Origin: a virus
Lineage: Duplodnaviria > Caudoviricetes
Strand: one strand, 5' to 3'
IMG/VR virus record: IMGVR_UViG_3300035698_013504
Location: 64,001 to 128,000 of that record
DNA: 64,000 nucleotides
The notes under the pieces were generated by a model that saw nothing but the letters and a program-made list of their open reading frames with translations, made no database searches and was not told the origin of the DNA. The position numbers and the translations under genes were made by a program. This document shows positions 1,969 to 48,340 of the stretch, in pieces. How positions within the stretch are numbered: position 1 is the stretch's first letter; every line of letters starts with the position of its first letter.

Positions 1969-2465
1969 TGGCTGATCGTCCGGCACTCATTTTACGCGAT
2001 ACCACTCAGTCGAGCATTAAGACGGGTGACCGCCTCGTCGACGCTGACGGCGTCCCCTACTCGCAGGGCGGTCAACGTCTTGTTGGTTTCGCGGCCAACG
2101 GCGCCTTTGCTACCGGCGATATCTCCCCGTGGTCCGGGCCGCTTTTGATTGCAGCAGCGACCGTAGATAGCGTCTCGGCATGTGTTAAGTCCGCGGCAAC
2201 GACTAATCCTGTTGAAATCGACGTGTTGATCAGCTCAGATAACGGCGCGACGTGGACATCTATCTTCACGACTACATTAACGATCGACGCCAGCGAGTTA
2301 ACGTCTACTACGGCCGCCGTACCCGCTGTAATCGATACGGCAAACAACACCATCAACGCTACAGACATGCTCCGTATTAATGTAGACGTTGCTGACGATG
2401 CAGAGGATCTTACCGTACAAATCGGTCTTGTGGACACAGCGTCGTCATCGTCGAGCTCGGCATAG
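1968..2465 (+). CDS. virion beta-sandwich protein with C-terminal Ser tail
   Basis: TAATG coupling with the upstream gene; paralog of 872-1267; ends TASSSSSSA. Confidence 0.7.
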   Translation: MADRPALILRDTTQSSIKTGDRLVDADGVPYSQGGQRLVGFAANGAFATGDISPWSGPLLIAAATVDSVSACVKSAATTNPVEIDVLISSDNGATWTSIFTTTLTIDASELTSTTAAVPAVIDTANNTINATDMLRINVDVADDAEDLTVQIGLVDTASSSSSSA

Positions 2466-2480
2466 AGGAGACTGACAGCT

Positions 2481-4982
2481 TTGTTATCATTCTTGGTCAA
2501 CTTCAGCGCAACGTCTTCCTCGAGTTCTTCGAGTAGCAACAGCTCGTCTTCAAGTAGCTGGAGTTCCTCGTCTTCGTCTAGTAGCTGGAGTTCCTCGTCT
2601 TCGTCAAGCAGCTGGAGCTCATCCTCTAGCAGCTCCTCCGACAGCAGCTCGTCGAGTAGCTGGAGTTCATCCTCTAGCAGCTCGTCTGACAGCAGCTCGT
2701 CGAGCTCGTCCTCTTGGAGTTCATCCTCGAGTAGCTCGAGTTACTCCACTGGCGCGGACCCGAACCTGGTGTTGTTCCTCCAGGCAGAAGGCGCGGATAA
2801 CGCCCGCGCGATTACCGACGACTCGATGTACGTGCATAGTGTCTACCCGCACGGTGAGCTGGACATAACAACAGATACGGCCGCCCTCGGTACCAGCGCC
2901 ATCTACTTTGACGGTAACACGCAAGAGCTCGTTACCTCACCAGACAGCACTGACTGGAACTTCAGCGGTGACTTCACCATTGAATGTTACGTGCGCTTTG
3001 AGGGCAACTCGATCGCGCAGAACCGCGGATTCCTTGCTCAGTACAAGAACAACACGAACTGTGATGCGCCGGATGCCGCATGGATGTTCTGCTTCCACTC
3101 GACTAAGGGGCTCTCATTCACCGCGTGGGATGGCGACACCGACAGTTACGTTATTCAGCAGCCCAACAACTCCGGCTGGGCCCTTAGCACATGGTACAAG
3201 ATCGCCGTTACACGCGAAGGCAATACTTGGAAGCTCTTCAGAGACACTACAGAGGTTGCTGTTGCAACCGACGCCCGCGTCCTTGAAGACGTGGCGGGTC
3301 CGCTTTACATTGGTAACTACGCTCCCACGAACAGTACGTGGAACTGGCAGGGTTACATGGACCACATCCGTGTCTGGAAGGGTGTCGCGCAGAATGAGGG
3401 TAACAGCTCCTCCAGCAGTAGCTCGTCTTACAGCGACGGTTGCCTGCCTCCTGGCTCAGGACCTTGTAACTTCTGCGATGAGGGTATCTGCGATACGTGC
3501 GACGAAGGCCCGTGCTGCACCGTCGACGAAATGGGCTGCATGTTCTGCGATCAGGGCGCTTGCTCCTCCTGTGACGAAGGCCTCTGCACTTCCTGTGACG
3601 AGGGTTCGTGTACTCGTTGTGACGAGAGTTTCTGTATGTCTTACGACGACCCGGTACTGGGCGCCTGTAACTTCTGCGATGACGGCAAGTGCTCCAGCAC
3701 CGACGAAGGTTCTTGCCGCCGCTGCGACGAGGCCGGGTGTACCCGTTGTGACGAAGCTCTCTGCACCGGCTGCGATGAAGGCCTTTGCACCGTAGCTGAC
3801 TCCGGTCGCTGCGTAGTCTGCGATGAGGGTACTTGCGCCAACTGTGACGAAGCTCTTGGTGGCGCCAACTGCTCAAGTTGTGACGAGAGTCCCTGTATCA
3901 GCTGTGATGAGACCAAGTGGAAGTGCCACAACTGTGACGAGGGTCTCTGCTCCAGGTGTGACCAGGGCGCTTGCTCCTCCTGTGATGAAGGCGCCTGCTC
4001 TAGCGCAGACGGCGGTTGCTGTACAAATACGGACGCAGGCGCATGTAACAACTGCGACGAGAACGAATGTTACCAGTGTGACGAAGTCGGCGGTTGTGCT
4101 GTCTGCGACGAGGGTTGCACTTCTTGTGACGAGGGCTGGTGTGGCACTTGTGACGAGGGTGACTGCAACCAGTGCGACGACGGCCCTTGCACTAGCTGTG
4201 ACGAAGGTCCTTGCATCAACGGCGACCAGGGCTTCTGCTCTGCGACCGACATCGGCCCGTGTCAGAGCTGTGACGAGGGTCCCTGCCTCCTCTGCGATGA
4301 GGGCGCCTGCACCAACGCCGATTACAACGAATGCTACCAGTGCGATGAAGAAGTCGGCTGCCCGTGGTGCGATGACGGCGGCTGCGACGTCTGCGATGAG
4401 GGATGTACCTACTGCGATGAAGGTCCCTGTATCAGCTGTGACGAAGCTGACTGCGACTCGTGTGACGAGGGTGACTGCGTCGCCTGTGACGAAGGCGCCT
4501 GCACTAACGGTGACAACGGCGCCTGCTCCAATTGTGACGAGGGTGTTTGCACGAACGGTGATCAGGGTACCTGTACCAACGGTGACCAGGGTGTTTGCTA
4601 CCAGTGCGATGAAAACGGCGGATGTACAGCCTGCGACGAAGGTTGCGCATCTTGTGACGAAGGCGACTGTACCAGTTGTGACGAGGGCGCTTGTAGCGTG
4701 GCTGACGCTGGCGCATGCTCGAGCTGCGACGAGGGCGCTTGTAGTTCCTGTGACCAGGGTGGTTGTGCCTCCTGCGACCAGGGCTGGTGTGGTACGTGTG
4801 ACGAAGGCGCCTGCAGCATGTGTGACGACGGACTTTGCACTTCGACGGATGAAGGTCCGTGTACCGTCTGTGACGAAGGTATGTGTGGTTCATGCGACGA
4901 GGGCTGGTGTGGTTCCTGCGACGAGGGTCCCTGCTCTCAGTGCGATGACGGCCTCTGTGCCGCCTGCGATGAATTCCCTTAA
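2481..4982 (+). CDS. poly-Ser / LamG (ConA-like) domain / 62x Cys-X3-Asp repeat protein; probable virion fibre-type protein and putative radical-SAM substrate
   Basis: TTG start with GAGGAG SD at 2465-2470; LamG hallmarks (SAIYFDG, DFTIECYV, W.KIAVTR.G, LYIG, GYMDHIRVWKG) at ~2760-3393; Cys/Asp repeat C-terminal half. Confidence 0.8.
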   Translation: MLSFLVNFSATSSSSSSSSNSSSSSSWSSSSSSSSWSSSSSSSSWSSSSSSSSDSSSSSSWSSSSSSSSDSSSSSSSSWSSSSSSSSYSTGADPNLVLFLQAEGADNARAITDDSMYVHSVYPHGELDITTDTAALGTSAIYFDGNTQELVTSPDSTDWNFSGDFTIECYVRFEGNSIAQNRGFLAQYKNNTNCDAPDAAWMFCFHSTKGLSFTAWDGDTDSYVIQQPNNSGWALSTWYKIAVTREGNTWKLFRDTTEVAVATDARVLEDVAGPLYIGNYAPTNSTWNWQGYMDHIRVWKGVAQNEGNSSSSSSSSYSDGCLPPGSGPCNFCDEGICDTCDEGPCCTVDEMGCMFCDQGACSSCDEGLCTSCDEGSCTRCDESFCMSYDDPVLGACNFCDDGKCSSTDEGSCRRCDEAGCTRCDEALCTGCDEGLCTVADSGRCVVCDEGTCANCDEALGGANCSSCDESPCISCDETKWKCHNCDEGLCSRCDQGACSSCDEGACSSADGGCCTNTDAGACNNCDENECYQCDEVGGCAVCDEGCTSCDEGWCGTCDEGDCNQCDDGPCTSCDEGPCINGDQGFCSATDIGPCQSCDEGPCLLCDEGACTNADYNECYQCDEEVGCPWCDDGGCDVCDEGCTYCDEGPCISCDEADCDSCDEGDCVACDEGACTNGDNGACSNCDEGVCTNGDQGTCTNGDQGVCYQCDENGGCTACDEGCASCDEGDCTSCDEGACSVADAGACSSCDEGACSSCDQGGCASCDQGWCGTCDEGACSMCDDGLCTSTDEGPCTVCDEGMCGSCDEGWCGSCDEGPCSQCDDGLCAACDEFP
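2514..2747 (+). repeat. poly-serine tract (~78 aa, ~70 Ser, punctuated by W/D/N)
   Basis: mixed TCN/AGY codons with local 27-nt duplications (AGTAGCTGGAGTTCCTCGTCTTCGTC twice). Confidence 0.9.
3465..4979 (+). repeat. 62 tandem, mostly 8-aa units of consensus C-x-x-C-D-E-G-x
   Basis: manual parse: every unit has Cys at position 1 and Asp at position 5; 48 of 62 also have Cys at position 4. Confidence 0.9.
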
Positions 4983-4987
4983 CCTAG

Positions 4988-6295
4988 ATGGAGACCGATG
5001 GCATGGCAACAGAAACTCCAGTGATCTCAACGATTGACTTCAACCTATCCGACAGGTGTAACCTTCGTTGTGCCTTTTGCTACACGAAGGACGGCCACGG
5101 CAATGGCCCTGACATGGAGAGGACAAAGCGCATCTTGACGTGGTACTACGATCAGCTCCGCGTCGGAATTGAAAAGAACCCGCAGCGCCGGAAGGTGGCG
5201 AGCTTGAACATCTACGGCGGCGAACCTCTTATGGAGTGGGATAGCCTGCAGGAGACTGTAGCGTGGATTCAAGAGAACCATGGCGATCTTCAGCTCAAGG
5301 CCGGTGTCGTGACCAACATGGTGCTACTTGACGAAAAGAAGCTCGACTGGCTGATGGACAACCGCATTGGTATCCACCCATCAATCGACGGGTGTGCCGC
5401 TGCGGAGGATACTCACCGCGTGTTCCCCGACGGGTCTGGCGCCAGCAAGTTTGTATACGATAATGCGCGGCGGCTGATTAGCCGTACGAAAGGCCGCAGC
5501 TGTCGTATGACGATTTCCCCAGAGACCGTGCCACATATCTTTGAGAGCATTAAGTTTCTCTGCGAGGATATTGGGTTCCACACCGTTAACGCCATTCTGG
5601 CTGGCGGCGCTGAGTGGACACCTTCGAACCTTGACGCTGTTAAGGCGCAGACCATACAAGTTACGGATTGGTGGCTTGAAAAGATGCGAGAAGGCGAGCA
5701 TTATTCCCTCTACTACTTGAGGAACATGTTCAAAGGTATACAGGACAGCAAGCGGCGGCGAAGCCTGTGTTCGTCAGGCATAAGCCGCGTTGGTGTTGAC
5801 ACCAACGGCGATCTATGGCCCTGTCACCGGTTCTGCAACCAGTCCGCGCAGTCTGAATATAAGCTGGGTACCATCGAGACAGGGTTTACCAACCTTGTGC
5901 TATACGAAAAGCTGAAGAACTACGACATTGCGGCAAGCATGAGCGAGAAGTGCAGTACGTGCCCCGCCGTTATGGGGTGCCACGCTCTCTGCCTTCACGA
6001 GATGATGGTCGCGGAGCGGGGGATGTTTACGCCGAACAATCACTACTGCTACATCTGGCCCTTCTACTGGAACGAGGCGATGCGTGCCCATTCCATTATG
6101 ACGGCCGAGAGGAACAAGCTGTACGAAAAGATGTACTGCAGCGGTGACGACAACCGCCGTCCGCAATCACGACAGCGCCCTGCGCGACAGAACCAAGGTT
6201 CGCGCCCGACGATGATGGAGAGAATGGAAAAACTCGAGGGCGAAGTGTCCGGAATCAAAAGTTGTGGGGCTTGCTCCTGCACGCCCCCGAAATAA
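4988..6295 (+). CDS. radical SAM enzyme with SPASM domain (peptide/protein maturase, PapB/CteB/anSME-like)
   Basis: CNLRCAFC (CxxxCxxC), YGGEP, SIDG; SPASM C-x12-G-x4-C (CSSG...GDLWPC) and CxxC-x5-C-x3-C (CSTCPAVMGCHALC) plus a late Cys; true start may be 5003. Confidence 0.9.
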   Translation: METDGMATETPVISTIDFNLSDRCNLRCAFCYTKDGHGNGPDMERTKRILTWYYDQLRVGIEKNPQRRKVASLNIYGGEPLMEWDSLQETVAWIQENHGDLQLKAGVVTNMVLLDEKKLDWLMDNRIGIHPSIDGCAAAEDTHRVFPDGSGASKFVYDNARRLISRTKGRSCRMTISPETVPHIFESIKFLCEDIGFHTVNAILAGGAEWTPSNLDAVKAQTIQVTDWWLEKMREGEHYSLYYLRNMFKGIQDSKRRRSLCSSGISRVGVDTNGDLWPCHRFCNQSAQSEYKLGTIETGFTNLVLYEKLKNYDIAASMSEKCSTCPAVMGCHALCLHEMMVAERGMFTPNNHYCYIWPFYWNEAMRAHSIMTAERNKLYEKMYCSGDDNRRPQSRQRPARQNQGSRPTMMERMEKLEGEVSGIKSCGACSCTPPK

Positions 6296-6614: not shown

Positions 6615-6890
6615 ATGAGCACTGTATTCACGAGAATCACAAACGCCGCGCGCGTTGCAAAGCACTTCGTATGGATCCCGCCTTACGGCAAGACGCTCGC
6701 CGTTGGCGCTCATATCGACGTCATCGGCATCATCGAAAGTCAGATTAAGGTCGGCGCGGGCAAGAGTGCGACGTCGCCCATGGAAACCGCGTACCTTGCT
6801 GACGTCGCTGCTGGTAACGTCACGGTCGAGCACAACGTAGCCTACGACCAGGGCAGTAGCAGCAGCTCTCTCATCCCGGCCGTCCTGTAA
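6615..6890 (+). CDS. small virion-associated protein with short Ser tract
   Basis: AGGAGAGG SD; ends DQGSSSSSLIPAVL. Confidence 0.65.
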   Translation: MSTVFTRITNAARVAKHFVWIPPYGKTLAVGAHIDVIGIIESQIKVGAGKSATSPMETAYLADVAAGNVTVEHNVAYDQGSSSSSLIPAVL

Positions 6891-6908
6891 CGGAGAAGGG
6901 TGGTACGA

Positions 6909-7715
6909 ATGAGTTTTGCACAAGACTGTATAGACGCTGGATCTAACCTGGCTGAAGTACCTGTTATGCAGATCGGCCAGCGTACGGCCGGTACGGCAGC
7001 CCTGACGATCAAGACTGCAGATGGCGCCCCGTATGACCTTACAGGGAAGACTGTGCAATTCATCGCCAAAGAGTTGTACACGGATAACGTCTCGTACATC
7101 GACAAGGCAATGACCATCGTCAGTGCCGTTGATGGCGAGGTCACGCTTGCGTATGGCACATCTGACTCCAAGTACGCCGGGGCGTGGGTAGCCCAGGCAA
7201 CAGTTAGGGACAGCGGCACCAACGAGTATATCTACCCGGTGTACTTCTATGTACGCACCTCCCTTGACTCGTTGACCTCTGAACTCGTAGGCGTACCGAA
7301 TATCTACGAGATCCGCCTGGCTATGCGCGATACCTCGGCTGTGGATAACTATCTGCTGGATGACGTCGAGTTCAGAGATGAAGAGATTATCGCCGTGATT
7401 CGCTGGCCGATCGATCAGTGGAACGAGACACCGCCCCCGGTACAGCGTTACACTCCCGCGAGCTTCCCGTGGCGCTACCACTGGATTCGTGCGATTGTTG
7501 GACACCTGTTGGAGATCAAAGCGCACAACTATCGCCGCAACCGCATGGACTACCAGGTTCAGGGCGGCCACGTTGACGATAAGAACAAAGCCGACAGCTA
7601 CGAGAAGCGGGCTAATGAGCTCATCTCGGAGTGGAAGGAGTGGATGATGCATACCAAGCTTACACTCAATATGAACCGCGGTTGGGGTACAGTAGGCTCT
7701 GGTGTGTATCGATAG
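6909..7715 (+). CDS. head-tail adaptor/neck protein with N-terminal BppU-like domain
   Basis: N-terminal half resembles BppU (PYDLTGKTVQF, GEVTL); C-terminal half has the large-myophage adaptor pattern EIRLAMRD...NYLLDDVEF.DEEI...FPWRY; position before the neck and terminator genes. Confidence 0.55.
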   Translation: MSFAQDCIDAGSNLAEVPVMQIGQRTAGTAALTIKTADGAPYDLTGKTVQFIAKELYTDNVSYIDKAMTIVSAVDGEVTLAYGTSDSKYAGAWVAQATVRDSGTNEYIYPVYFYVRTSLDSLTSELVGVPNIYEIRLAMRDTSAVDNYLLDDVEFRDEEIIAVIRWPIDQWNETPPPVQRYTPASFPWRYHWIRAIVGHLLEIKAHNYRRNRMDYQVQGGHVDDKNKADSYEKRANELISEWKEWMMHTKLTLNMNRGWGTVGSGVYR

Positions 7716-7731: not shown

Positions 7732-7733
7732 CG

Positions 7734-8666
7734 GTGAGTAATGTGGATTGCAACATCTTCAGTAGAGTTAGCGTTGACGCATGGGTTCCCGGCGATTCTG
7801 TTGTCTATTGGAGCCTGCGCCCAGATTTTACCTACACGGGCGACGTCCACTTCTACGTAGACCACGCACGTCCTGGCGGCGATTGGACATGCTTGAACCC
7901 GGAAGACCCGGTGATCAACGCCTGCGCCTTCACCGACGGGGATAAGCGTAACTGGGGTACACAACCGCAGAGTTACTACCGTGTTCGTATGGTGAATCCC
8001 CCGGGCGGAGACACTTACGTATCTCAGCCCCAGTCCATCTTTGGTAACCTCAACCGCAACGACTGGCTGCTCGTACGTGAAGCCGCAAGACAGAAGTACC
8101 TTGAGTACGCTAAGGGTGACGGCCAGCTTGGCTGGTTGCTCAAACGCCGTCGATGGGGCACCGAGTGTCCAGATTGTCTTGACTGGGACACGGGTGAGCG
8201 TACGAACTACAACTGTGACCGCTGTTTTGGTACTGGAATCCTCTACGGGTTCTTTCCGTCCATCGCCGTACCCATGGCTATTAGGGGCCGTGCCCCACGC
8301 CGTAAGGTAACGCAGGAGCAGGTCGGGGTCATGGATCCTAAGACGGTGAAGGCGGAGTGTGTAGCATACCCGATGATCGAGACGGAAGACGTATGGGTCG
8401 ATGCAGATACGGGCGAGCGCTTCTTTATTCAGACAATCGACGTCCAGTCATCCATCCGCGGCGTACCACTTACATACGCGTCTGAGCTTCGCCTTGCCCC
8501 GTATACACACATTATCTACACAATACCGCTGGAGGGCGCGGAGGCCCGAAGTAGCTCTTCCGCTTCCAGCGTCTCGTCGAGCAGCAGCGGCTGGTCTTCA
8601 AGTAGTAGCTCACGAACGCTGGTTCAGCGCGAGTGGCGGCAAGGGTTATCCGACGACGAGTGGTGA
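7734..8666 (+). CDS. head closure/neck protein with Zn-finger
   Basis: RRRWGTECPDC...CDRCFGTG motif as in large-phage neck proteins; C-terminal Ser tract. Confidence 0.55.
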   Translation: MSNVDCNIFSRVSVDAWVPGDSVVYWSLRPDFTYTGDVHFYVDHARPGGDWTCLNPEDPVINACAFTDGDKRNWGTQPQSYYRVRMVNPPGGDTYVSQPQSIFGNLNRNDWLLVREAARQKYLEYAKGDGQLGWLLKRRRWGTECPDCLDWDTGERTNYNCDRCFGTGILYGFFPSIAVPMAIRGRAPRRKVTQEQVGVMDPKTVKAECVAYPMIETEDVWVDADTGERFFIQTIDVQSSIRGVPLTYASELRLAPYTHIIYTIPLEGAEARSSSSASSVSSSSSGWSSSSSSRTLVQREWRQGLSDDEW

Positions 8667-9568: not shown

Positions 9569-12379
9569 ATGCCTAGCTACATTCTTCCGCAGGCGCTGGT
9601 GTATCAGGAGTTCAATGAAACACCTACCGCTATCACCGAGCCGTTGCGTGCCTGTATCGTCGGGCCTCAGTATGACCTGTTCAGGTACGGCACCGCCGCT
9701 GAGAAGGCCCTAACGGACCTCGGAGCCTACGACCCCTCGACGGACACGTGCTACAGTTGGCCCGGTCGCGCTGCGGGTTCGGTCGTCGACACCACGTACA
9801 CGAAGGTCTACATCGACGACGCACTTCTGCAGTACTACCATGACCCTGTGGGCAGCTTGTCCACGGTTGCGTCACCGGCCGGAACGCCTAAGAACCGTAT
9901 TCGTTCCGACACGCTGGCGTTTAAGACGGGTAACGGCACCTCACGTAGCGCCGCCTTCTATGATCGCGACGTTGCTGTTGGTGACGTGATTCAGCTGACC
10001 AGCACCGCCTGTAGCCGTACGACCTCGTTGCTTAGCACGGTCATTGGCCTTGTTGCCGACGAAGTTGCGGACGTCATCGCGAGTCCTCTTGTTTCGTCTG
10101 GTAACCAGGGCACGCTCGTTGCATCGAGCAGCATCTCGCAGTCGGCTGGTACCGTCAGTGACGTATGGGCGGCTATCGACGCGACCTCCTACCTCGGCCT
10201 CTACGATGGCGATCCGTCTGAGACGTACACGATCACCGTTGTTGAAGCTTCGGTAGCCGAAGACGCCACAACCGCCGAACTTTCCGTCGTAAGCACCAGT
10301 GGAAACGATGACGTGGCTCAGGTTACACCCGCCGCCTTCGGTTCGCCGACGACGATCGGTACTCGTGGCTTGACGGTCACCTTTGACAACTCTGGCGCCG
10401 CTGGCGGTAGCTCGAGTTCGAGTTCTTCGGGCGATACCTACCAGGACGACTTCATCGTCGGCCAGGTTTGGGTTGCTGCTGTTCAGGAAACATACGCTGC
10501 CCCCGTCGTGGCCTCGAGTGGCGACTACACCGGCTCTGCCGACGATGTCTACATCATCGAATGCACGACTGGCGGGTACTTCGCAGGTACAAAACCTCAG
10601 GTTACCTGCTACAACGCTAGTGGTACGGACATGAGTGGTCCCACGACAGTGACGACCGCCGTTGCCTTCGCCGCAGGCACCCAGGGCGTGACAGCCACTA
10701 TCACCGGCTCGTACATGAGCAAGGGTGACATGTGGACCGTCGCGGTCACTGCTGCTACGTCTGGCCCCTTCAGAACGCTCGTGTTGGCGAACAACCTCAC
10801 GGACGAGATGTTGGGCGAGTGCAGCGGATGGGATACAGGCAGCTCCAGCTCTTCGAGCTCTAGCTACTCCCCTGGCGATGTAGACCTCAAGCTCTACATC
10901 AAGAAGGATATCCAGGTCACCGAGCAACGCACAGGTGTCCCCGGTACGTACAACTGGACTCAGAGCGCTACCCAGATCTGCACGGAAGATGGAATCACCG
11001 CCTACGACTCCACGTGGGTCAACGGCTCAACGCTTCTTCCGCTGACAGTACAGGGTGGTACCGTCTACGTTGAGTACCGAGCACTTGTTCCGATCGGCGC
11101 CTCGTCTGTCGGTAGTGTCATCGACGTTAGTGAAATTCCGGCCGCTGTCGGTACGATCGACGTTGATAACCCCATCTCTTACGGGGTGTACAAGGCCGTT
11201 AGCAACGCAAACGGTACACCCGTTAAGTATCTCAACATCGCCACCGACGACACTGCCGGTTGGACGAATGCACTTGAGATCCTCAACGGTACGGATCAGG
11301 TCTACGGCCTTGTGCCGGTGACGTGGGACGAAACCGTTCAGGACCTCTTTGCCGCTCACGTGGCCACGATGTCTGCCGCGACCGAAGCCAAATGGCGCAT
11401 GACATGGCTCAGTACTCCCATGGCGTCCACCTACGGCCTCGTCACGACGAACGCAAGCGCCACCACCCTGTTGGCCACGATCGAGGACGATCCTGATGCC
11501 GCGGGTACCCAGTACACACTCCTGACGGGTGTTAACAGCGAGTTCCGCACCGACGCCGTTCGTGCCGGTGACACGGTTCGCTGCAAATACTCCGGTGACG
11601 GTTGGAGTGGTGTCTCTTATGAGGAGTATCTGGTTGACAGCGTTGTCAACGAAGACACCCTTCGCCTTTACAGTGGCCCCTCAACCCCGACGGCTACGCC
11701 CTCTAAGATTGAGATTTGGCGTACCCGTACGAAGGATGAGCAGGCTAGCTACATCGCCACTAAGAGTGGAGCTTTCGCCTCCAGCCGTGTCATTAACGTA
11801 TGGCCGGACTACCCGATCGTTAGTAGCGTATCGGTGGCCGGTTACTACTTGTGCGCCGCGCTGGCCGGGTTGAAGTCCGGTGTTGTGCCTCACCAGGGTC
11901 TGACGGACGTCCAAGTCGCTGGCTTTGACGACATGACTCGCACCACCGAGTACTTCACGTATGCACAGCTCAACACAATGGCCGCTGCTGGCACTTGGAT
12001 CGTTACGCAGGACCCCGACGTTGGTACCGTCTACACTCGTCACCAGTTGACGACGGATATGACGAGTACCAATACGAAGGAACTCAGCGTCACGACCAAC
12101 GTGGACAGCATCAGCTACATTATGAAGTCTGCGTTAGAGCCCTATATCGGCCGAGGTAACGTGACGGACACGATGCTTTCGTTGATTCGTAAAGAGGTTA
12201 CCGACGCACTTGAATATCTGCAGAACAATATTACGGTTGACCGTCTTGGGGCACAACTCAATATCGGATCAATTCGTACCATTGCTCAGCACGCCACACT
12301 GTTGGACAGAATCACGGTCATCGTTGACCTTGAATTGCCGTACCCGCTTAACAACATCGAGGTTCACCTGGTCGTATAA
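9569..12379 (+). CDS. contractile tail sheath protein (936 aa, with inserted domains)
   Basis: AGGAGG SD; C-terminal sheath signature (RHQLTT...ELSVTTNVDSISY...YIGRGNV...PYPLNNIEVHLVV). Confidence 0.85.
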   Translation: MPSYILPQALVYQEFNETPTAITEPLRACIVGPQYDLFRYGTAAEKALTDLGAYDPSTDTCYSWPGRAAGSVVDTTYTKVYIDDALLQYYHDPVGSLSTVASPAGTPKNRIRSDTLAFKTGNGTSRSAAFYDRDVAVGDVIQLTSTACSRTTSLLSTVIGLVADEVADVIASPLVSSGNQGTLVASSSISQSAGTVSDVWAAIDATSYLGLYDGDPSETYTITVVEASVAEDATTAELSVVSTSGNDDVAQVTPAAFGSPTTIGTRGLTVTFDNSGAAGGSSSSSSSGDTYQDDFIVGQVWVAAVQETYAAPVVASSGDYTGSADDVYIIECTTGGYFAGTKPQVTCYNASGTDMSGPTTVTTAVAFAAGTQGVTATITGSYMSKGDMWTVAVTAATSGPFRTLVLANNLTDEMLGECSGWDTGSSSSSSSSYSPGDVDLKLYIKKDIQVTEQRTGVPGTYNWTQSATQICTEDGITAYDSTWVNGSTLLPLTVQGGTVYVEYRALVPIGASSVGSVIDVSEIPAAVGTIDVDNPISYGVYKAVSNANGTPVKYLNIATDDTAGWTNALEILNGTDQVYGLVPVTWDETVQDLFAAHVATMSAATEAKWRMTWLSTPMASTYGLVTTNASATTLLATIEDDPDAAGTQYTLLTGVNSEFRTDAVRAGDTVRCKYSGDGWSGVSYEEYLVDSVVNEDTLRLYSGPSTPTATPSKIEIWRTRTKDEQASYIATKSGAFASSRVINVWPDYPIVSSVSVAGYYLCAALAGLKSGVVPHQGLTDVQVAGFDDMTRTTEYFTYAQLNTMAAAGTWIVTQDPDVGTVYTRHQLTTDMTSTNTKELSVTTNVDSISYIMKSALEPYIGRGNVTDTMLSLIRKEVTDALEYLQNNITVDRLGAQLNIGSIRTIAQHATLLDRITVIVDLELPYPLNNIEVHLVV

Positions 12380-29483: not shown

Positions 29484-29498
29484 GCGAGGATGAGAATC

Positions 29499-31394: not shown

Positions 31395-31401
31395 GTGACC
31401 T

Positions 31402-33738: not shown

Positions 33739-33749
33739 CGTATACACCT

Positions 33750-38415: not shown

Positions 38416-38424
38416 CGGACAACT

Positions 38425-40713: not shown

Positions 40714-42888
40714 ATGGCGGAAGACAACATCCTGGCGCGTATCCACGCGGCAACACAGGAGCTCAGCACAAACGGGGAGCTAGACAGGCGGATACACGAA
40801 GAGCTTACTCCCGGCATCAAGACACGGGTAATAGGTCCGTGCGCTTACAGGGGCAACGAGAAAGAGGCGCGAGAGAAACCGTGTTGTGGGGGTAAGAAAA
40901 CACGGGAAATCCTTTTTGCCTGTAGTCACCCAGAAATTGCAGCCGGGGAATCCTGGTCCGCTATCTGTCAGCGCTGTAGGTTCATATCCCCGGTCGCAAG
41001 CCAACCAAACAGCCTGCTGGGCGCCAAACGCATACTTGTTATGCCGTGGGGAGACAAGGGATCTATCCGCAACCTAATCCAAGCCCTCGACAAAATGTCG
41101 TTTGACGTGTCGGTTCTCCAACGTGGTGGAGGTGAGTGGAAGGACGCCGCGGTTGAGAAACTGAAGAACGAGCACTTCGACCTTGTTGTAACCTGGCAAC
41201 GCCTTTATAGCATGGGCTGGTGCGAAGAGGTCAACAAGATCATTGACGCGCGGAACATCCCTAAGCTCATCTTGGACTTTGGCGTGTGGGACCACTACAA
41301 GTCGGCTATCGTCGACCCGGTTGGTGATAACGCCGAATCTGCGGTAGCCGGTAACTTCATTCGGTTACTGCAAAACCCCTTGCAAGCCAAAGCTACAACA
41401 GATGCAATGATACGGTTACCGGCAATGGTTGATACGGTTAAGGCGTCGGCCGAGATAGGGGCGACGTATCTGGACGATGCAAACCTGTCCGGTCTTCCTA
41501 AAGACTTTATGCTTCTGCTTCTGCAGCGTACAGGAGACCAAGTACTTCTACGAGACGCTCCAAAGTCTAGGCAGGATCAAAGCCGTGTCGCCCGAGATAT
41601 CATTGCTGAGGCAAGACTCGCAGGCAAGTTTGTGGTTGTCAAGCCCCACCCGTTTGATAAGCCTTTAGAGGGCGTAGAGGCATCTGGGCCGCATCACCGG
41701 CTAGTAACAAACTTGACGATGGGAGATCAGAACACCGCGGTACTGTCGCATCTGCTGCTTAACTGCGAGCGGATGATCACCGTGAACTCCACAACAATCT
41801 TTATGGCCCAGTTGCTAGGCGTACCTGTATTCACGCTTGGTAAAGGCTGGTTTTCTGGGAACAGAGTTGCAAATGAACCCCCGCTGATTCGCGGTGCGGT
41901 TCTTGATAAGAATGCAGTAGACGTAGAGTACGCCAAGAAGTTCTTCGCGTTTATGTATAGCCGACAACTAACAATCGGTGAGTGTGGCGAGCCGGAAGCC
42001 GTGCTCAGGATCCTGAAGCTCATGCACCCGTCTTTGCTAGAGTCTTCGGAGGTGCAATCAAGCTCGTCGCCAGAGCCTCCAAAGGTTCCGACGCCGCAAA
42101 TCACGATGCCTACTATCAACGCCCAGGCCTTGTCGAAGACCCTAAAGCCCGCCCCACGCTCTGAGATGAAAGACGTTACCGCCATGCTGTTGACATGGAA
42201 GAGAGACTCCGCGCAGCAAGTAGTTAACTCTTTGCGCGACTCGGGCGTACAGAACATCTGGATATGGTGCAATGAGGGCGCAGCTGTACCTGATGGGGTC
42301 GATGTGTCCATCGTGTCTTCTACCAACCTAGGTAACTGGCAGCGTTTTGCGATGGCGCCGCTGGTTCCAACTTCACACATCCTTTATTGCGACGACGACT
42401 GTACGATTACGCCTGCCGGTATTCAGGCCCTTTCCAAGGGTATGGCGACGTTCCCCAACAACGTACTTGGTTTATGGGGGTGGGCGTTTAACCCGTCGTT
42501 CGAACACTACCGCCAGCGGGAGGAATTTCATAGCCACACGCTGCAGGGACATCAAGCGATGTATGCCGATATGATCTCCCCGTGTGGAATGCTCGCGCCG
42601 CGTATCGCTATCCAAGAGGCTATGGGTAAGGTTAACTACTGGAACACAGCCCTGAAGATATTTGGCGACCACACGTTGGACGATATGACACTTTGCCTGG
42701 CGATGTCGAAATGCGGATGTGGCAGGCCCGCTGTCGTACAGGGTGAGGGGGCCGGACTCAAGTTTATCAAAGACACCGCCCCCGCGTCTTCACTCGCTCT
42801 GAAACCGGGCCGTCGAGAGATACTATACACAGAGACACTTCCGGCGTTCCGCGGAATCGGATGGAGTCCGATTAAAGAGGGGAAGTAA
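40714..42888 (+). CDS. multidomain glycosyltransferase: Cys-rich N-terminus + capsule-biosynthesis (KpsS-like GT-B) domain + GT-A domain
   Basis: VVKPHP, ITVNSTT...LLGVPVFTLG (KpsS/KpsC-like); YCDDD DxD motif in the C-terminal domain. Confidence 0.7.
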   Translation: MAEDNILARIHAATQELSTNGELDRRIHEELTPGIKTRVIGPCAYRGNEKEAREKPCCGGKKTREILFACSHPEIAAGESWSAICQRCRFISPVASQPNSLLGAKRILVMPWGDKGSIRNLIQALDKMSFDVSVLQRGGGEWKDAAVEKLKNEHFDLVVTWQRLYSMGWCEEVNKIIDARNIPKLILDFGVWDHYKSAIVDPVGDNAESAVAGNFIRLLQNPLQAKATTDAMIRLPAMVDTVKASAEIGATYLDDANLSGLPKDFMLLLLQRTGDQVLLRDAPKSRQDQSRVARDIIAEARLAGKFVVVKPHPFDKPLEGVEASGPHHRLVTNLTMGDQNTAVLSHLLLNCERMITVNSTTIFMAQLLGVPVFTLGKGWFSGNRVANEPPLIRGAVLDKNAVDVEYAKKFFAFMYSRQLTIGECGEPEAVLRILKLMHPSLLESSEVQSSSSPEPPKVPTPQITMPTINAQALSKTLKPAPRSEMKDVTAMLLTWKRDSAQQVVNSLRDSGVQNIWIWCNEGAAVPDGVDVSIVSSTNLGNWQRFAMAPLVPTSHILYCDDDCTITPAGIQALSKGMATFPNNVLGLWGWAFNPSFEHYRQREEFHSHTLQGHQAMYADMISPCGMLAPRIAIQEAMGKVNYWNTALKIFGDHTLDDMTLCLAMSKCGCGRPAVVQGEGAGLKFIKDTAPASSLALKPGRREILYTETLPAFRGIGWSPIKEGK

Positions 42889-42893
42889 CAGCT

Positions 42894-43796
42894 ATGGGAA
42901 GCCTGTTAGATCGCATCAAGGATGCAGCACCCAAAGATCTGAAGCCTTACGTGCCGCCCGCCGATGATATGAAGGGGGCGCACATCTATATTCTATCGCA
43001 CGAGCGATATGAGCTGCTACGATGTTGTTTGGCGTCTGTATGCGCGTCTCCAATGACGTGCTATATCCATGTTATTGATGACTCGAGTCAAGATCCCCGC
43101 GTGATGAAACTGATATGCGCGTATCTTGAAGCGGGGCTCATTAAATCTGTTACTACCACTCCGCATCATCTGAAGCACGGCTGGTCGCGCCGTCTGATGA
43201 TGAACCATTTTGACGTAGATGATGCGCACACACTCATGCAGCTCGATGGAGATATTGTTGTGCCGCCAGGCGGCTGTGAACGTATGATCTCGATATTTCG
43301 TCAGCTTCATCAAAAGGCTGATGTACAGTGGCTTGGCGCGTGCCATATGGAGTATTTCTATGGTAAACCGAAGAATACACAAGAGGTCATTTCCGGTGAC
43401 GAGAGATATTTGATCGAACGCTTAACCCGCAATGCGAGTGAGGCCGCTTTCGTTATGTCAAAAGAAGCGGTCCGGTATAAACCTGCGCTAGATACGGTGG
43501 GGCCTCCTAGAACGCATCTCGGTAATTTTATTGTAAAGGTCGCGGAGATGGGAGTGACAGCAACCTTGATCACTCCGCCTATTCGGTTTCAACATATGGG
43601 GGCGTTTGATTCAATCGTTTGGCCGGGGCGCCCGTGGCCTCGCTACCTCTTTCGCGGCCTAGATGGTAAGCCATGGCAGCCCTTTGAGTGGTGTGAAATA
43701 GACTACAAGGAGATGGAAAGCCGCTACCCAAAATCCGTGAAAGAGTTGTCGGATAGAATTATCGAACACGCAGAAGTGGAGCTCCCAAGTGTCTAA
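42894..43796 (+). CDS. GT2-like (GT-A) glycosyltransferase
   Basis: HVIDDSSQD and QLDGD motifs, FQHMG. Confidence 0.7.
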   Translation: MGSLLDRIKDAAPKDLKPYVPPADDMKGAHIYILSHERYELLRCCLASVCASPMTCYIHVIDDSSQDPRVMKLICAYLEAGLIKSVTTTPHHLKHGWSRRLMMNHFDVDDAHTLMQLDGDIVVPPGGCERMISIFRQLHQKADVQWLGACHMEYFYGKPKNTQEVISGDERYLIERLTRNASEAAFVMSKEAVRYKPALDTVGPPRTHLGNFIVKVAEMGVTATLITPPIRFQHMGAFDSIVWPGRPWPRYLFRGLDGKPWQPFEWCEIDYKEMESRYPKSVKELSDRIIEHAEVELPSV

Positions 43797-45342
43797 TATC
43801 GTTGAACGTATCACAGCAGCGTCATCGTTTCAACAAGGTAGGGCAATCCAAGAGAGTAGGACAAAGGAAACCAGCGGAACCTCGCGGGTCATGAAGTTTC
43901 CGAAAGCTATTCGACACAAAGACTTTAGGATGTACGCCGCATCAATTCTGAATTCGGCGAAGTTCGCCGGTATCGATATCGTTTACGAGTCAGGTAGAAT
44001 CTCACCTGTAACGGGTCTTGTCTTCATCACGCTGAACGGCATTGACGCGATTATTGACTACGCGGACGGGCTAACTACCAGGTGCCCCGATGTCACAACT
44101 CCGGTGTTCAGATTCAACTACACGCCATTAGCGCCAAATCCACGCAACACTTACGCGTTTGTACCGCTGACTTTTTACGATTGGAACAGCTTCAACCAGA
44201 TGCGAGAGTCTCTACCGAAGAAAAGAAACACAACACAGATTATTGCGACACAGCGCATTTTTCCGCCCCGTCTACTTTGGGATGATTATTTTGATACTGT
44301 TGGCGTGGCAGCCCAGTTACCTATTCGTCGACCGGCGGCGTGCGGTCTAAACAACCACCCACGGGAATACGTCCGGGGTATACTAGAGCCCCATATTGGT
44401 AAGCGGTTCATTTGGAAACGAGAGAGCCGCGACGTCTTTCTTCAGCAGCTAGTTGACCATTTGTTTACGTTCCACGTGCCGGGTACGAGGTTTGGTATTC
44501 TAGACCGGACAGTTTCTGAACACATGGCGTTTGGCGGTTGTGCTATATCGTCTCAGATCCTCACCGAGCTGCCCTATGGGCAGAAGCTTATCCCCGGTGT
44601 ACACTACGTTCAGTGCGCAGACGACTTCTCCGATGTTTTAGAGGTCACCGATTGGTGTTTACAGAATGTGGATAAATGTGTGGCGATAGGTCAAAACGCA
44701 ATGAAACTGTTCGATGCTACCTATCGACCGGCCAAGGTATGGGATTGGGTGTATAACATGATAACGAATGATGATACCGAGAGTGACGCACGTAGGGTGT
44801 TTAATACACGACTGGCTAAGGTAAGAGCCGACAGAATCAACATGCAACAAAATGTCGAGGAGCTGTTTTCCGCGTTCATGGAAATGTGGAAGATTCATCC
44901 AAGTCGATTTATGGAGATAGGATCACTTAACGGCGGCTCCCTCTATATACTCGCCGGAGCATGTGCGCCGGGCGCTGTAATAGCCTGTTTCGATATTAAA
45001 CGAGTTACTAAACGCCAAGCGATACTTGACGATTTACGCCGAGAGGGGTTTTTGACGTATGAACAAATTGGCGACAGCGGCTCGATGCAGACTCTCGACC
45101 GATTCAAAAAGATGTTTCCTCGCGGTTTAGACGCTTTACACATTGACGGGGATCATGGTAAACCAAACTGTTTCCTTGACTTTGAGTGGTATGGAACATC
45201 AGTACGTAACGGAGGCCTGGTTCTTATCCACGACATAGCGACTAAGTTTGAGTGTGCGGAAGCGTGGCTGGAATTACGACATCGATACCGACACGCCGAG
45301 TATAAAAACGGGGGGCAAGGGATGGGCGTTCTATTTGTTTAG
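43789..45342 (+). CDS. glycosyltransferase-like domain fused to a class I SAM methyltransferase (Methyltransf_24-like)
   Basis: N-terminal ...RTVSEHMAFG...LIPGVHYV...DFSD (GT1_2/GT90-like); C-terminal FMEIGSLNGGS, DALHIDGDH, GGLVLIHD. Confidence 0.7.
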   Translation: MSNIVERITAASSFQQGRAIQESRTKETSGTSRVMKFPKAIRHKDFRMYAASILNSAKFAGIDIVYESGRISPVTGLVFITLNGIDAIIDYADGLTTRCPDVTTPVFRFNYTPLAPNPRNTYAFVPLTFYDWNSFNQMRESLPKKRNTTQIIATQRIFPPRLLWDDYFDTVGVAAQLPIRRPAACGLNNHPREYVRGILEPHIGKRFIWKRESRDVFLQQLVDHLFTFHVPGTRFGILDRTVSEHMAFGGCAISSQILTELPYGQKLIPGVHYVQCADDFSDVLEVTDWCLQNVDKCVAIGQNAMKLFDATYRPAKVWDWVYNMITNDDTESDARRVFNTRLAKVRADRINMQQNVEELFSAFMEMWKIHPSRFMEIGSLNGGSLYILAGACAPGAVIACFDIKRVTKRQAILDDLRREGFLTYEQIGDSGSMQTLDRFKKMFPRGLDALHIDGDHGKPNCFLDFEWYGTSVRNGGLVLIHDIATKFECAEAWLELRHRYRHAEYKNGGQGMGVLFV

Positions 45343-45372
45343 AGACCGCGGACAGTTTACGACCTAAGATAC

Positions 45373-45401
45373 TTGACTCGTAGCGACTGCGTTGCTAAAC
45401 T
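45373..45401 (+). promoter_or_regulatory. sigma70-type promoter
   Basis: TTGACT-N17-TAAACT with extended -10 TG at 45393-45394, upstream of the GT9 gene. Confidence 0.55.
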
Positions 45402-45425
45402 CAGAGGAACTAAACCCCATAGGAG

Positions 45426-46433
45426 GTGGCCATGCCAGAATCAGTTCTCGTGATAAATAAGCAGAGCCCCGGCGACTACATTGTTATGAGCTCAGCAATT
45501 CGCGACCTAGCTCGTAGGCACCCGGGTAGGTACAGGGTAGCGGTCAAGACGGCCACGAAGGACGTGTGGCGCGAGAACCCCTACATCGAACACGAGCCCC
45601 TCCCCGTCGAGCCAAAGCCCAACGCCTTCAAGGCGGGTTACCCTCTGATCCATAAGTCGAATCAGGAGCGTGTCCACTTTATGTGGGGCTTCATCGAGGA
45701 CATGAACCGCCACCTCCAGCTCGACGGGTCTCCAGGTCAAGAGCAGGTGGTGCTGACTGAGTTTCGACCCGACCTGCACCTGACGGACGAGGAGAAGTCA
45801 GTCCGCCCGTTCAAGGAGCCCTACTGGGTCATGGCGTCTGGCGGCAAGTACGACTTCACCGCCAAGTGGTGGAACCCCGCAAGGTGGCAGACGGTCGTCG
45901 ACAGCCTAGCCAAGCAGCATGTCCTGTGTGTCCAAGTAGGCGAGCAAGGGCATTACCACCCAAAGATGGCGGGTACGATCGACATGGTGGGCAAGACGCG
46001 CTTCAGAGACCTCATGAAGCTGATCTATCACGCTGAAGGCGTTATGTGCGTCGTCACGTGTCTTATGCACATCGCGGCTGCATTTAACCGCCCGTGCGTC
46101 GTTGTGGCTGGCGGTAGAGAGCCCTGGTGGTGGGAAGCTTACACCGCGGAGAATCGACTGACCAACATGCGGCGAGGCATACCCGACTGGAACCCGCCGG
46201 AGACAGACTTCTTTATCCCTCACCGATACATCCATACCTGTGGCCAGCTGGACTGCTGCAAGGCAGGTGGGTGTTGGAAGGGTAGCGTTGTGACGAACAA
46301 GGAGAAGGACAGGTGCAAAGCTCCCTACCTTGACGATGGCGCCACGATCCCACAATGCCTGGCGATGATTACGCCCGAGCTGGTTCACCAGTGTGTGATG
46401 AGCTATTACGAGGACGGCACGCTCACTCGATAG
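45426..46433 (+). CDS. GT9-family (ADP-heptose heptosyltransferase-like) glycosyltransferase
   Basis: SPGDYIV; IDMVGKT...LIYHAEGVMCVVTCLMHIAAAFNRPCVVVAGG GT9 signature. Confidence 0.8.
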   Translation: MAMPESVLVINKQSPGDYIVMSSAIRDLARRHPGRYRVAVKTATKDVWRENPYIEHEPLPVEPKPNAFKAGYPLIHKSNQERVHFMWGFIEDMNRHLQLDGSPGQEQVVLTEFRPDLHLTDEEKSVRPFKEPYWVMASGGKYDFTAKWWNPARWQTVVDSLAKQHVLCVQVGEQGHYHPKMAGTIDMVGKTRFRDLMKLIYHAEGVMCVVTCLMHIAAAFNRPCVVVAGGREPWWWEAYTAENRLTNMRRGIPDWNPPETDFFIPHRYIHTCGQLDCCKAGGCWKGSVVTNKEKDRCKAPYLDDGATIPQCLAMITPELVHQCVMSYYEDGTLTR

Positions 46434-46449
46434 CAACGTGTTACAGAAA
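46431..46449. promoter_or_regulatory. conserved intergenic imperfect palindrome, copy 3
   Basis: TAGCAACGTGTTACAGAAA, identical to 48926-48944. Confidence 0.55.
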
Positions 46450-46462
46450 CAGGAGAACACCG

Positions 46463-47800
46463 ATGGCACAGCTTGAACCGTTTACAGTAGCACCTGAAGA
46501 CATAGCCGCCTGCGCGGGCTGTGGTGAAGATGTACGTGGTGCTGCGTTCAAAGACGTAGAGACCTCGAGGATTGTATGCACAGAGTGCAAGGACCTCTAT
46601 ACTGCCCCGGCCAAGCCGCGGCTGCCTGCCGTAACGGTCCGTAGCGAGCCCATGGACGTTGAACCTGTCTACGACAGCCCGGTGGGCTATAAACCAGAAG
46701 AGCTTCAGCCCTGCGGTATATGCGCGATGCTGTTGCGCAGCGAAGAGTCCATGTGGGATGTTGGACGCAGGCGCATTCTGTGTAAGGTATGTGCGTCCAC
46801 CGAATACCCGGACCAGGTACGACTTGAATCTGGGATAGTCGTCACGAAGAAACCGGTTACCACCGACGCGGGCGAAGTGAAAGGCAACATCGAGGTAATC
46901 GAGGCCCGTAAGCGTGTTGACGACATGATGACCCAACAAGGTGCGGAAGTTCTTCAACAACTCCCCCCTACGGTTAGCGCCGCGCCTACGGTGCCAGACC
47001 ACCAGACCATACAGCGGCTAGGAGGACCTGACGTAGCAGCTATGATGCAGACACACCCAGAGCTCAGATACATCGAGCCGCCCGTTGAGATACACGTCCT
47101 TCTTTATGGCAACTACACCAACTTGCACTTCCGGTGCATCAACAGCATCATTGCCAATACCCCGCCCGGCACCTACTCTCTTCGTATTGGTTGCAACGAG
47201 GTGTGTGAGGAGACGATGAAGTGGTTGGAAACAAGCGTCATGACGCAAGTCGATGACGTCAGACTCTTTGTCGCCAGGAAGAACGTCAACAAGTATCCTC
47301 TCATGCAGAAGATGTTTGCGGACATTCAGTCGAAGTGGGTGGTGTGGTTCGACGATGACACGTACGTCCTCGACGGTAACTGGCTGCAGAATCTCTCGAT
47401 GAAGGTGGCTAAGCGGCGCCCGCAGGGCTATGCCTGCTTCGGTAAACCGCTATACGTCCACGTCAAAGAGGGGAACCAGGAGTGGATGAAGCAAGCCTCG
47501 TGGTATGAAGGCATGCCTTTCGCCGAACACCCTGACGCCAAGATGCGCGACAAGGGCTACAAGAAGGTAGACTTCATCCTTGGCGCGTGGTTCGCTATGG
47601 AAGCCTCGGTTATCCGCGAGCTTGGTTGGCCCGACAAACGCCTCAATCATAACGGTGGTGACGCCGCACTCGGCGAGGCGCTAAGGCAGCATGGGTACAA
47701 GCTCGACTGGTACCACGACGGTATCCGACCTGACGCCGAGGGCCGGGAGAACAGGCGTGGAACACATGAAGAGTATCCCGAGGCTGCACCAAAGCCGTAG
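46463..47800 (+). CDS. double Zn-finger N-terminus fused to a GT2-like glycosyltransferase
   Basis: AGGAG SD with ATG 46463; CAGC..CTEC and CGIC..CKVC; WFDDDTY DxD; FILGAWF, HNGGD. Confidence 0.7.
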   Translation: MAQLEPFTVAPEDIAACAGCGEDVRGAAFKDVETSRIVCTECKDLYTAPAKPRLPAVTVRSEPMDVEPVYDSPVGYKPEELQPCGICAMLLRSEESMWDVGRRRILCKVCASTEYPDQVRLESGIVVTKKPVTTDAGEVKGNIEVIEARKRVDDMMTQQGAEVLQQLPPTVSAAPTVPDHQTIQRLGGPDVAAMMQTHPELRYIEPPVEIHVLLYGNYTNLHFRCINSIIANTPPGTYSLRIGCNEVCEETMKWLETSVMTQVDDVRLFVARKNVNKYPLMQKMFADIQSKWVVWFDDDTYVLDGNWLQNLSMKVAKRRPQGYACFGKPLYVHVKEGNQEWMKQASWYEGMPFAEHPDAKMRDKGYKKVDFILGAWFAMEASVIRELGWPDKRLNHNGGDAALGEALRQHGYKLDWYHDGIRPDAEGRENRRGTHEEYPEAAPKP

Positions 47801-47804
47801 CTCA

Positions 47805-47813
47805 TGCTATAAT
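47805..47813 (+). promoter_or_regulatory. extended -10 promoter element
   Basis: TGCTATAAT, a perfect TGnTATAAT, ~30 nt before the 47843 start. Confidence 0.5.
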
Positions 47814-47842
47814 CTATGGAGCGGTATTGGAAAGGGAGCAGA

Positions 47843-48340
47843 ATGTCTTCATCGTCTTCATCGTCTTCATCCGCATGGCCGTACAGGTACGTAAAGCTAC
47901 AGAAGAGTGTACCCGTCCGTTGGGACAGAGGTGCGCTCCACGGGTACCGTATGCTCGTCGAGGTGACAGAAGCCTACCTAATGAGCAGTGCGATCTTCAT
48001 CTACCGCAGATTCTCTGCAGGTGCGGGCGAATCGGATACGTACGACGAGTTCACGAACGTCGCCTCCCCCGCGGATATGGAAGAGTACCCGCTGACAATA
48101 CCCAATGAGACAGGTCGGCCGTTCTTCCGCTTGGCCACCATTGATCTTATCTTCAGGAACCTGGCTGACGCCGATGACGTGTGGGAATACATCCAGGCCG
48201 AGGTGAACTCGCTTGTTGTAGGTCTGAACAGGATGGATGACCTGGAAGCCACGTCGGTTGCCTTCTTCGGTAGCTCCAGTTCGTCCTCAAGTAACTCATC
48301 CTCGTCAAGTAGCTATTCGTCATCCTCATCCTCAGAGTAG
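47843..48340 (+). CDS. protein with poly-Ser at both termini
   Basis: GGGAG SD; MSSSSSSSSSAWP... and ...GSSSSSSSNSSSSSSYSSSSSSE. Confidence 0.7.
   Translation: MSSSSSSSSSAWPYRYVKLQKSVPVRWDRGALHGYRMLVEVTEAYLMSSAIFIYRRFSAGAGESDTYDEFTNVASPADMEEYPLTIPNETGRPFFRLATIDLIFRNLADADDVWEYIQAEVNSLVVGLNRMDDLEATSVAFFGSSSSSSSNSSSSSSYSSSSSSE

Follow-up and report, generated by a model that had tools for sequence, protein, structure and literature searches.

Serine tracts in tail and fibre proteins of a jumbo phage as candidate O-glycosylation acceptor tags beside a GT9-fold glycosyltransferase

Mycobacteriophages Che8, Corndog and Myrna are reported to encode glycosyltransferases (GTs) that modify their own capsid and tail proteins (Freeman et al. 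2023, as cited in PMC12363180). In bacteria, the GT9-type enzymes TibC and AAH (BAHT) place heptose on many Ser, but not Thr, residues of an autotransporter surface protein in the cytoplasm (PMC4358343), and the Gram-positive serine-rich repeat (SRR) adhesins Fap1 and GspB, surface fibres very rich in Ser, receive heavy O-glycosylation from dedicated cytoplasmic GTs whose genes lie alongside their own (PMC2952246). Ser-rich runs are also known as linkers: in Saccharophagus degradans, more than one-quarter of over 180 depolymerases carry polyserine linkers replacing PT linkers (PMC2386152). Here we describe near-pure Ser tracts in tail, baseplate and fibre proteins of a jumbo phage (G000), encoded in a 64,000-nucleotide window that comprises bases 64001-128000 of a virus record of 200,903 bp, complete with direct terminal repeats; positions refer to this window unless the genome is named. 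We think it somewhat probable that these tracts are portable O-glycosylation acceptor tags on the assembled tail, the baseplate periphery and the fibres.

The mycobacteriophages are like the present phage in having GT genes in or near the structural module, and they differ from it in hosts, phage lineage and GT families; here the enzymes are GT9-fold and GT2, and the proposed acceptors would be long stretches of nearly pure Ser in sheath, baseplate and fibre proteins. The likeness to the BAHT enzymes lies in a GT9-type GT-B fold and perhaps in a conserved Cys cluster that may recall the iron finger of TibC, a 406-aa protein with an N-terminal beta-barrel at residues 1-97 and four iron-finger Cys (C339/342/358/370) in its C-lobe (PMC4358343). 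In contrast to TibC, the phage enzyme has 335 aa, has no beta-barrel, and shows a sequence affinity to this group no greater than to WaaC/WaaF; a second GT accompanies it or is fused to it, and its proposed acceptors are disordered homopolymers rather than beta-helix repeats. The linkers of carbohydrate-active enzymes from S. degradans and Cellvibrio japonicus are likewise long near-pure Ser runs that join domains of modular extracellular proteins, whereas the phage runs are often terminal tails or short conserved loops, belong to virion proteins and track a GT gene. The SRR adhesins differ in having dipeptide-type (SAST-like) repeats, GtfA/B (GT4) enzymes and SecA2/Y2 export, components that the phage does not have. 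A literature search found no paper on poly-Ser tags of phage virion proteins or on a GT9-type enzyme linked to them.

Ser tracts in the tail, baseplate and fibre module

The + strand carries nearly all genes, and the tail, baseplate and fibre module occupies positions 870-48,340. If a strong tract is taken to be one with 9 or more Ser per 12 residues, 7 proteins of this module carry strong Ser tracts and 2 more have an S5-S6 run near the C-terminus, all encoded on the + strand. Some of the tracts lie at domain joints. The 833-aa product of 2481-4982, which matches a PHROG virion structural protein, begins with an 84-aa tract (aa 8-91, nt 2502-2753), followed by a LamG-like domain (PF13385), a second tract (aa 307-320, nt 3399-3440) and Cys-rich repeats. 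In the 757-aa fibre-like protein of 33750-36023, a first tract (aa 298-324, nt 34641-34721) precedes a 72-aa tract (aa 537-608, nt 35358-35573) that leads into an extra C-terminal domain of 149 aa, and in the 547-aa fibre-like protein of 36772-38415, an S5 run at aa 23-27 precedes a 96-aa tract (aa 266-361, nt 37567-37854) that leads into an extra C-terminal domain of 186 aa. The post-LamG tract of 2481-4982 and the two long fibre tracts are Ser runs between two folded domains, the arrangement that characterizes polyserine linkers; the terminal tails and the sheath loops are not so placed.

A further set of tracts lies at protein termini: a weak C-terminal run, S6-A, in the 165-aa virion-module protein of 1968-2465 (Ser run at nt 2442-2459), a C-terminal tail in the 634-aa baseplate-distal protein of 29490-31394 (aa 621-633, nt 31350-31388), and tags at both ends of the small protein of 47816-48340 (aa 7-22, nt 47834-47881; aa 151-174, nt 48266-48337). 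The remaining class consists of short surface loops, two of them in the 936-aa tail sheath encoded by 9569-12379 (site 1, aa 281-287, nt 10409-10429; site 2, aa 423-436, nt 10835-10876) and one, flanked by Cys, in 29490-31394 (aa 306-334, nt 30405-30491). In addition, the 310-aa protein of 7734-8666, whose gene comes after the one with a BppU_N domain, has a tract at aa 272-294 (nt 8547-8615), and the 91-aa protein of 6615-6890 is a weak case with S5 near its C-terminus (nt 6855-6869).

Two side observations concern the first of the terminal runs. A tenth open reading frame (ORF), at genome 62416-62946 on the + strand, about 1.1-1.6 kb before the start of the window, encodes a 176-aa protein that ends in S6-A like that of 1968-2465; the first gene call had an antisense ORF there. 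The products of 872-1267 and 1968-2465 are small paralogous proteins with the common motifs GPWS.P and NG.TWTS.FTT.LTID, and the Ser tail is present only on the latter.

Across the whole genome, called genes contain 35 runs of at least six Ser, where within-protein shuffles lead to an expectation of 0.12 (maximum 2), and genes with such a run number 7/43 in the module and 0/192 elsewhere (p = 4e-6). Every run of this length in the six frames of the window is on the + strand and in the frame of one of the tract ORFs. All six Ser codons occur in the tracts at background frequency (tract/background, TCG 0.23/0.21 and AGC 0.21/0.20), which points to selection on the protein level; trinucleotide slippage, considered as the origin of the tracts, is excluded by the same mixture. 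The residues that punctuate the Ser runs are W (16), N (8), Y (8) and D (6), a spectrum that differs from the expectation of neutral one-step decay of Ser codons. Unit duplications of 27, 48 and 54 nt are seen in the tract DNA and explain the roughly nine-residue period of the punctuation. A first, sequence-only reading of this DNA had listed Ser runs in these structural proteins, and every one is present in its ORF and frame; its observations that the replication and packaging genes are free of such runs, that the Ser codons are mixed and that W, D, N and Y recur as punctuation all hold.

Conservation of the tracts and their association with GT9

The sheath has no Pfam match of its own; its identity is indicated by homologues at 45-47% identity that carry PF04984 and by the position of its gene before that of Baseplate_J. 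Scanning viral contigs with the single sheath protein gave no match, and an alignment query was required. Among 684 homologues at E <= 0.001, the best 120 have 43-51% identity, and contigs of about 200 kb carry many of them. In these best 120 of 684, site 2 holds a run of at least four Ser in 87/120 (modal run, 5-7) and site 1 a run of at least three in 82/120, and all other parts of these sheaths of about 930 aa contain 5 runs of at least four Ser in total. Judging from these homologues, Ser identity itself is conserved at the sheath sites, which we count in favour of acceptor tags; the composition of a mere spacer should drift, yet Ser is held at both sites in most of the 120. More distant sheaths have a site 2 that is either short or occupied by inserted domains of about 100 aa, which marks it as an exposed, insertion-tolerant surface loop. 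In the clades that lack the GT9 gene described below (IMG/VR loci L031-L067), the site 2 loop (window 10808-10891) bears inserts that are about 100 aa long and belong to two or more unrelated kinds, in sheaths of 1056-1188 aa. A separate case is L062, an IMG/VR fragment whose sheath is 32% identical: here it is site 1 rather than site 2 that has acquired, independently, a Ser-rich insertion of about 60 aa, and the contig ends about 14 kb past the sheath.

Related records (numbered G0xx) were compared with G000 as 13 whole genomes and most of G025 (160 of 188 kb), and the module is syntenic in the 10 relatives compared gene by gene. In the closest relative, G032 (71% sheath identity; GC content, 47% versus 55% in G000), tracts lie at the same positions in five proteins: the sheath and the products of the genes at 29490, 33750, 36772 and 47816. 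The Cys-flanked loop of 29490-31394 is nearly identical between the two phages, W positions included, whereas the two long fibre tracts differ in length (96 versus about 60 aa and 72 versus 36 aa). Beyond G032, the tract site of 7734-8666 is S-rich in G004, G002 and G010 as well as in G032, and the tract positions of G004, G002 and G010 hold S-rich segments that are shorter and degenerate; those of G005, G030, G011, G024 and G016 hold PT/PTG-type linkers or are empty. The tracts are therefore clade-level features, not family-wide ones. The extra C-terminal domains of 33750-36023 and 36772-38415 are absent from orthologues outside G032; elsewhere the orthologues of 33750-36023 stop at the tract site, that of G004 ending there in a Ser tail. 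Two automated counts of tracts were discarded: a WSN x10 IUPAC pattern run over 32 records picked up the ordinary periodicity of codons in GC-rich genomes, and a protein search with the 96-aa tract failed, owing to composition correction, to recover G030 and G032, which served as positive controls, so that its outcome carries no information.

Five glycosylation-type genes on the + strand (40714-47800) close the module, and the 174-aa small protein comes directly after them. The first, 40714-42888, encodes 724 aa with a Capsule_synth domain (KpsC/S-like, PF05159) and a weak GT64-like match, and is found only in G000 and G032; the second, 42894-43796, encodes a GT2 glycosyltransferase with an orthologue in 0/10 relatives examined; and the third, 43789-45342, encodes 517 aa with a C-terminal Methyltransf_24 domain. 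The fourth, 45426-46433, encodes a GT9-fold glycosyltransferase of 335 aa, a candidate for the initiating Ser-O-glycosyltransferase. The fifth, 46355-47800, encodes 481 aa, with an N-terminal half lacking an assigned family followed by a GT2 domain. Three of the five genes are confined to G000 or its closest relative, and only the GT9 gene and the GT2 half of 46355-47800 are kept across relatives. In G005, G011, G028 and G030, GT9 and GT2 form a single ORF of 635-702 aa with the small protein directly after; they are split in G000 and G032, and in G000 the 46355-47800 gene overlaps the GT9 gene by 79 nt and has an added N-terminal half of 240 aa. A GT9 orthologue occurs in 17/31 large related records.

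The product of 45426-46433 matches PF01075 (CAZy GT9) at 45.7 bits against a cut-off of 22 and is a GT9 member; membership of the BAHT group is not established. Its structure is predicted as a GT-B two-Rossmann fold (pLDDT [predicted local distance difference test] 84), and the top 30 Foldseek matches of this model in the PDB are all GT9 enzymes (WaaF 1psw, Veillonella GT9 3tov, TibC 4rb4/4rap and WaaC; E 4e-10 to 7e-7). The best NCBIfam match is the Aah/TibC model TIGR04414, at 34.3 bits far under the cut-off of 200 and marginally above LPS (lipopolysaccharide) heptosyltransferase I, whereas WaaF and WaaC come out ahead when PDB sequences are searched with a profile; neither fold nor profile told the protein type of GT9 from the LPS type. 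The cluster that may recall the TibC iron finger consists of Cys 283, 297 and 311 (invariant in A2) together with 272 and 277/278, and lies before the last helix in a low-confidence segment of the model.

The tracts tend to follow this enzyme across genomes. The 9 genomes with GT9 (1.64 Mb) hold 33 tract-bearing ORFs with 1080 aa in tracts, compared with 2 marginal ORFs and 36 aa in tracts in the 6 genomes without it (1.2 Mb), counts that are suggestive only. The small protein, present in all relatives, adjoins GT9/GT2 throughout the lineage, and a terminal run of at least four Ser is present on it in 24/37 distinct loci with GT9 versus 0/5 genomes without (p = 0.01), a count that is likewise suggestive only. 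Subclades differ in whether the tag is N- or C-terminal, a pattern that implies that it was gained or maintained more than once. The start of the small protein in G000 is probably at 47843, as the sequence-only reading had it, since orthologues begin with Met and then directly the Ser run. Its predicted structure combines a beta-sandwich and a long helix in a confident core with disordered Ser ends, and matched no known fold (Foldseek against PDB and BFVD, E > 0.2; best VIA-align Z, 5.5). That tracts should co-occur with GT clusters had been proposed as a check, and the outcome is mostly favourable: the association holds for 45426-46433 and its GT2 partner, while the whole five-gene cluster does not track the tracts and G005 and G011 are exceptions.

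GT9 loci were also retrieved from IMG/VR (contigs numbered Lxxx), and 8 contigs have only the GT9 domain in common with G000. These provide more independent evidence than the counts within the family. Ser-tract proteins lie beside GT9 in 5/8 of them (L220, L221, L222, L223 and L217), which represent four other phage lineages. In L220 and L221, a GT9-GT4 fusion is followed by proteins of about 1000 aa with 36% Ser; L222 is a siphovirus-type locus with a tape measure, in which a 1885-aa protein with an 81-aa tract is encoded directly upstream of GT9; in L223 a GpJ-like tip protein with a Ser tail at its end adjoins a GT9-GT4 fusion; and in L217 a Ser-tract ORF adjoins GT9. The tract style common to these contigs is blocks of S6-10 with a single I, F, L, Q or W. 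The large proteins at L220:12167-18939 and L221:12152-17910 have about 870-1160 aa, of which 240-500 residues consist of (S8-10, I) repeats.

Readings of the tracts

From the observed anatomy, conservation and associations of the tracts we infer a transfer of sugar from a donor, with the enzymes acting in the following order. The tags would be unstructured, surface-exposed segments at termini, in surface loops and between domains. Late in infection, the GT9-fold enzyme would add a first sugar to the Ser hydroxyls of the tracts in the cytoplasm, and the GT2 partner, in whose place unrelated phages have a GT4-type domain, would extend it; the lineage-specific GTs and methyltransferase (40714-45342) may elaborate the glycan further. 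The outcome would be a mucin-like hydrophilic brush on sheath and fibres. The small protein beside the GT pair is a likely ancestral tagged substrate, from which tags may have spread later to other virion proteins in some sublineages. Terminal tails and short loops cannot be linkers and count for acceptor tags; the long tracts double as physical linkers, and the two roles are compatible. The O-glycosylated PT linkers of secreted glycanases are an example of linker and glycan roles together. Also in favour are the restriction of the tracts to the virion module under selection on the protein, their agreement in position between G000 and G032 across 8 points of GC content, the existence within the GT9 family of enzymes that hyper-glycosylate Ser of proteins (TibC/AAH), the phage's own NeuB and further GT2-like domains, and the precedent of the mycobacteriophages.

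Several findings weigh against this interpretation. The long tracts lie at exactly the sites of the relatives' PT/PTG linkers and join appended domains, and the GTs could have the glycans of the host envelope as their target. The GT9/tract counts are not phylogenetically independent and reflect few independent events: the genomes without GT9 fall into one clade or two, and those rich in tracts group together. In G005 and G011 the GT9-GT2 fusion is present nearly without tracts, the only one kept being a four-Ser run at the C-terminal end of the small protein, and G033, a 75-kb fragment, has S6-S9 runs in or near the sheath while GT9 was not found in the fragment. Neither fold nor profile places the GT9 enzyme nearer to TibC than to LPS heptosyltransferases; it starts at Rossmann strand 1 (E5-10, then H15-31) where TibC has its N-terminal beta-barrel, and ADP-heptose pathway genes (GmhA, HldE-like) were not found in the phage.

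The chief alternative, which we consider unlikely though serious, is that the tracts are unmodified flexible hydrophilic spacers of the Saccharophagus/Cellvibrio polyserine-linker type, an established linker type (PMC2386152), that give appended domains reach and mobility; the terminal tails would be harmless leftovers or starts of domain accretion, and the GTs would act elsewhere, for example, on the host envelope. Spacers would account well for the two longest tracts, which join lineage-specific C-terminal domains to conserved cores at a point where the G004 orthologue ends in a Ser tail, for the PT, PTG or P-rich linkers of relatives at the same sites, for the free variation in tract length between G000 and G032, and for the visible unit duplications of 27-54 nt. 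They fit poorly with the terminal tails and with the sheath loops of 7-8 residues, which join nothing, and leave unexplained why the small-protein tag and the tract ORFs track GT9 and why Ser-tract proteins lie beside the same GT9 domain in unrelated phages. The sequence-only reading had called the tracts lineage-wide acceptor tags rather than ordinary linkers. Its acceptor-tag interpretation draws partial support from the conservation of tract positions and the GT9 link, and its expectation of tracts at the same positions in related phages was borne out in the five proteins of G032 and at the sheath sites (87 and 82/120). "Lineage-wide" was too strong, as the corresponding sites of distant relatives are occupied by PT-type linkers or inserted domains or are empty, and the exclusion of a linker role is not established because the long tracts sit at ordinary linker sites, joining extra C-terminal domains.

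A modification of another kind, with GT9 not being the initiator, is improbable. It might be phosphorylation, attachment of a phosphoglycosyl group or polymer, or a flagellin (Maf)-type addition of nonulosonic acid through a phage NeuB pathway; the phage does encode NeuB (genome 173297-174010) and further GT2-like domains at 170-177 kb, and the cluster includes the KpsC/S-like domain (PF05159). A Hanks-type kinase was not found in the phage, which leaves the phosphate coat offered earlier as an alternative to a glycan without support, and it is GT9 whose presence goes with the tracts from genome to genome, the KpsC/S-like gene being present only in G000 and G032. Least probable of all is that the Ser/Trp/Tyr-punctuated runs, through hydroxyl hydrogen bonds and aromatic stacking, weakly bind host capsule or exopolysaccharide and hold the phage on the host surface layer: the tracts are on fibres and outer sheath and their punctuation is biased to W, Y, N and D, which are not the commonest one-step neighbours of Ser codons, but the GT9 link would be unexplained and the I, L, F or Q punctuation in other phages argues that aromatic stacking is not general.

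Returning to acceptor tags, we tentatively entertain a wider version, in which poly-Ser would serve tailed phages in general as a transferable "glyco-tag". A GT9 initiator, always paired or fused with an extending GT (GT2/GT4), would recognize disordered Ser homopolymers with one hydrophobic or aromatic residue per about nine positions and hyper-glycosylate any virion protein carrying them, with tags spreading from one small substrate to sheath, baseplate and fibres to form a mucin-like coat. If true, phages would have a second form of self-glycosylation, mechanistically distinct from that of the mycobacteriophages and far more widespread. Even within the present lineage, glycosylated tags would mean that jumbo phages of a large group, widespread in the environment, use enzymes of their own to cover contractile tail and fibres with a glycan brush; one search gave 684 sheath homologues, many of them on contigs of some 200 kb. 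A coat of this kind would matter for the stability of the particle, for its adsorption to the surface layers of the host and for its shielding from proteases and, in therapeutic phages, from antibodies, and a simple sequence tag with a cognate enzyme pair could serve for site-directed protein O-glycosylation in bacteria.

Neighbouring genes and other low-complexity sequences

Of the genes that frame the tract-bearing ORFs, a BppU_N domain gene (6900-7715, + strand) and Baseplate_J (25632-27278, + strand, downstream of the sheath) were assigned by domain match, and fibre-like genes extend over 29490-40197 (+ strand). The gpA-type terminase (54777-56567) is on the strand opposite to the module. 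Aragorn reported 0 tRNA or tmRNA genes on the whole genome, and the phage thus appears to bring no tRNA-Ser supply of its own.

Low-complexity sequence other than poly-Ser occurs in the same module. The 590-aa protein of 38425-40197 (+ strand) carries PT, SP and VSISPG linkers, in the form of a TPEPTPTP tract, (SP)n and VSISPG repeats encoded by near-perfect 18-nt repeats; the module therefore uses PT-type linkers beside poly-Ser. In 2481-4982, the Ser/LamG part gives way to Cys-rich repeats of 8 residues (24-nt period) that extend over about 500 aa, and the adjoining gene, 4988-6295, encodes a radical SAM/SPASM protein. We considered this protein as a Ser-modifying enzyme of the anaerobic sulfatase maturase type and rejected it; the best match is to a PapB-type Cys-Asp thioether (ranthipeptide) maturase (171 bits, versus 73 for the sulfatase maturase). 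Given its position after the Cys-repeat protein, the gene is separate from the question of the Ser tracts, and it may serve the thioether stapling of a virion protein.

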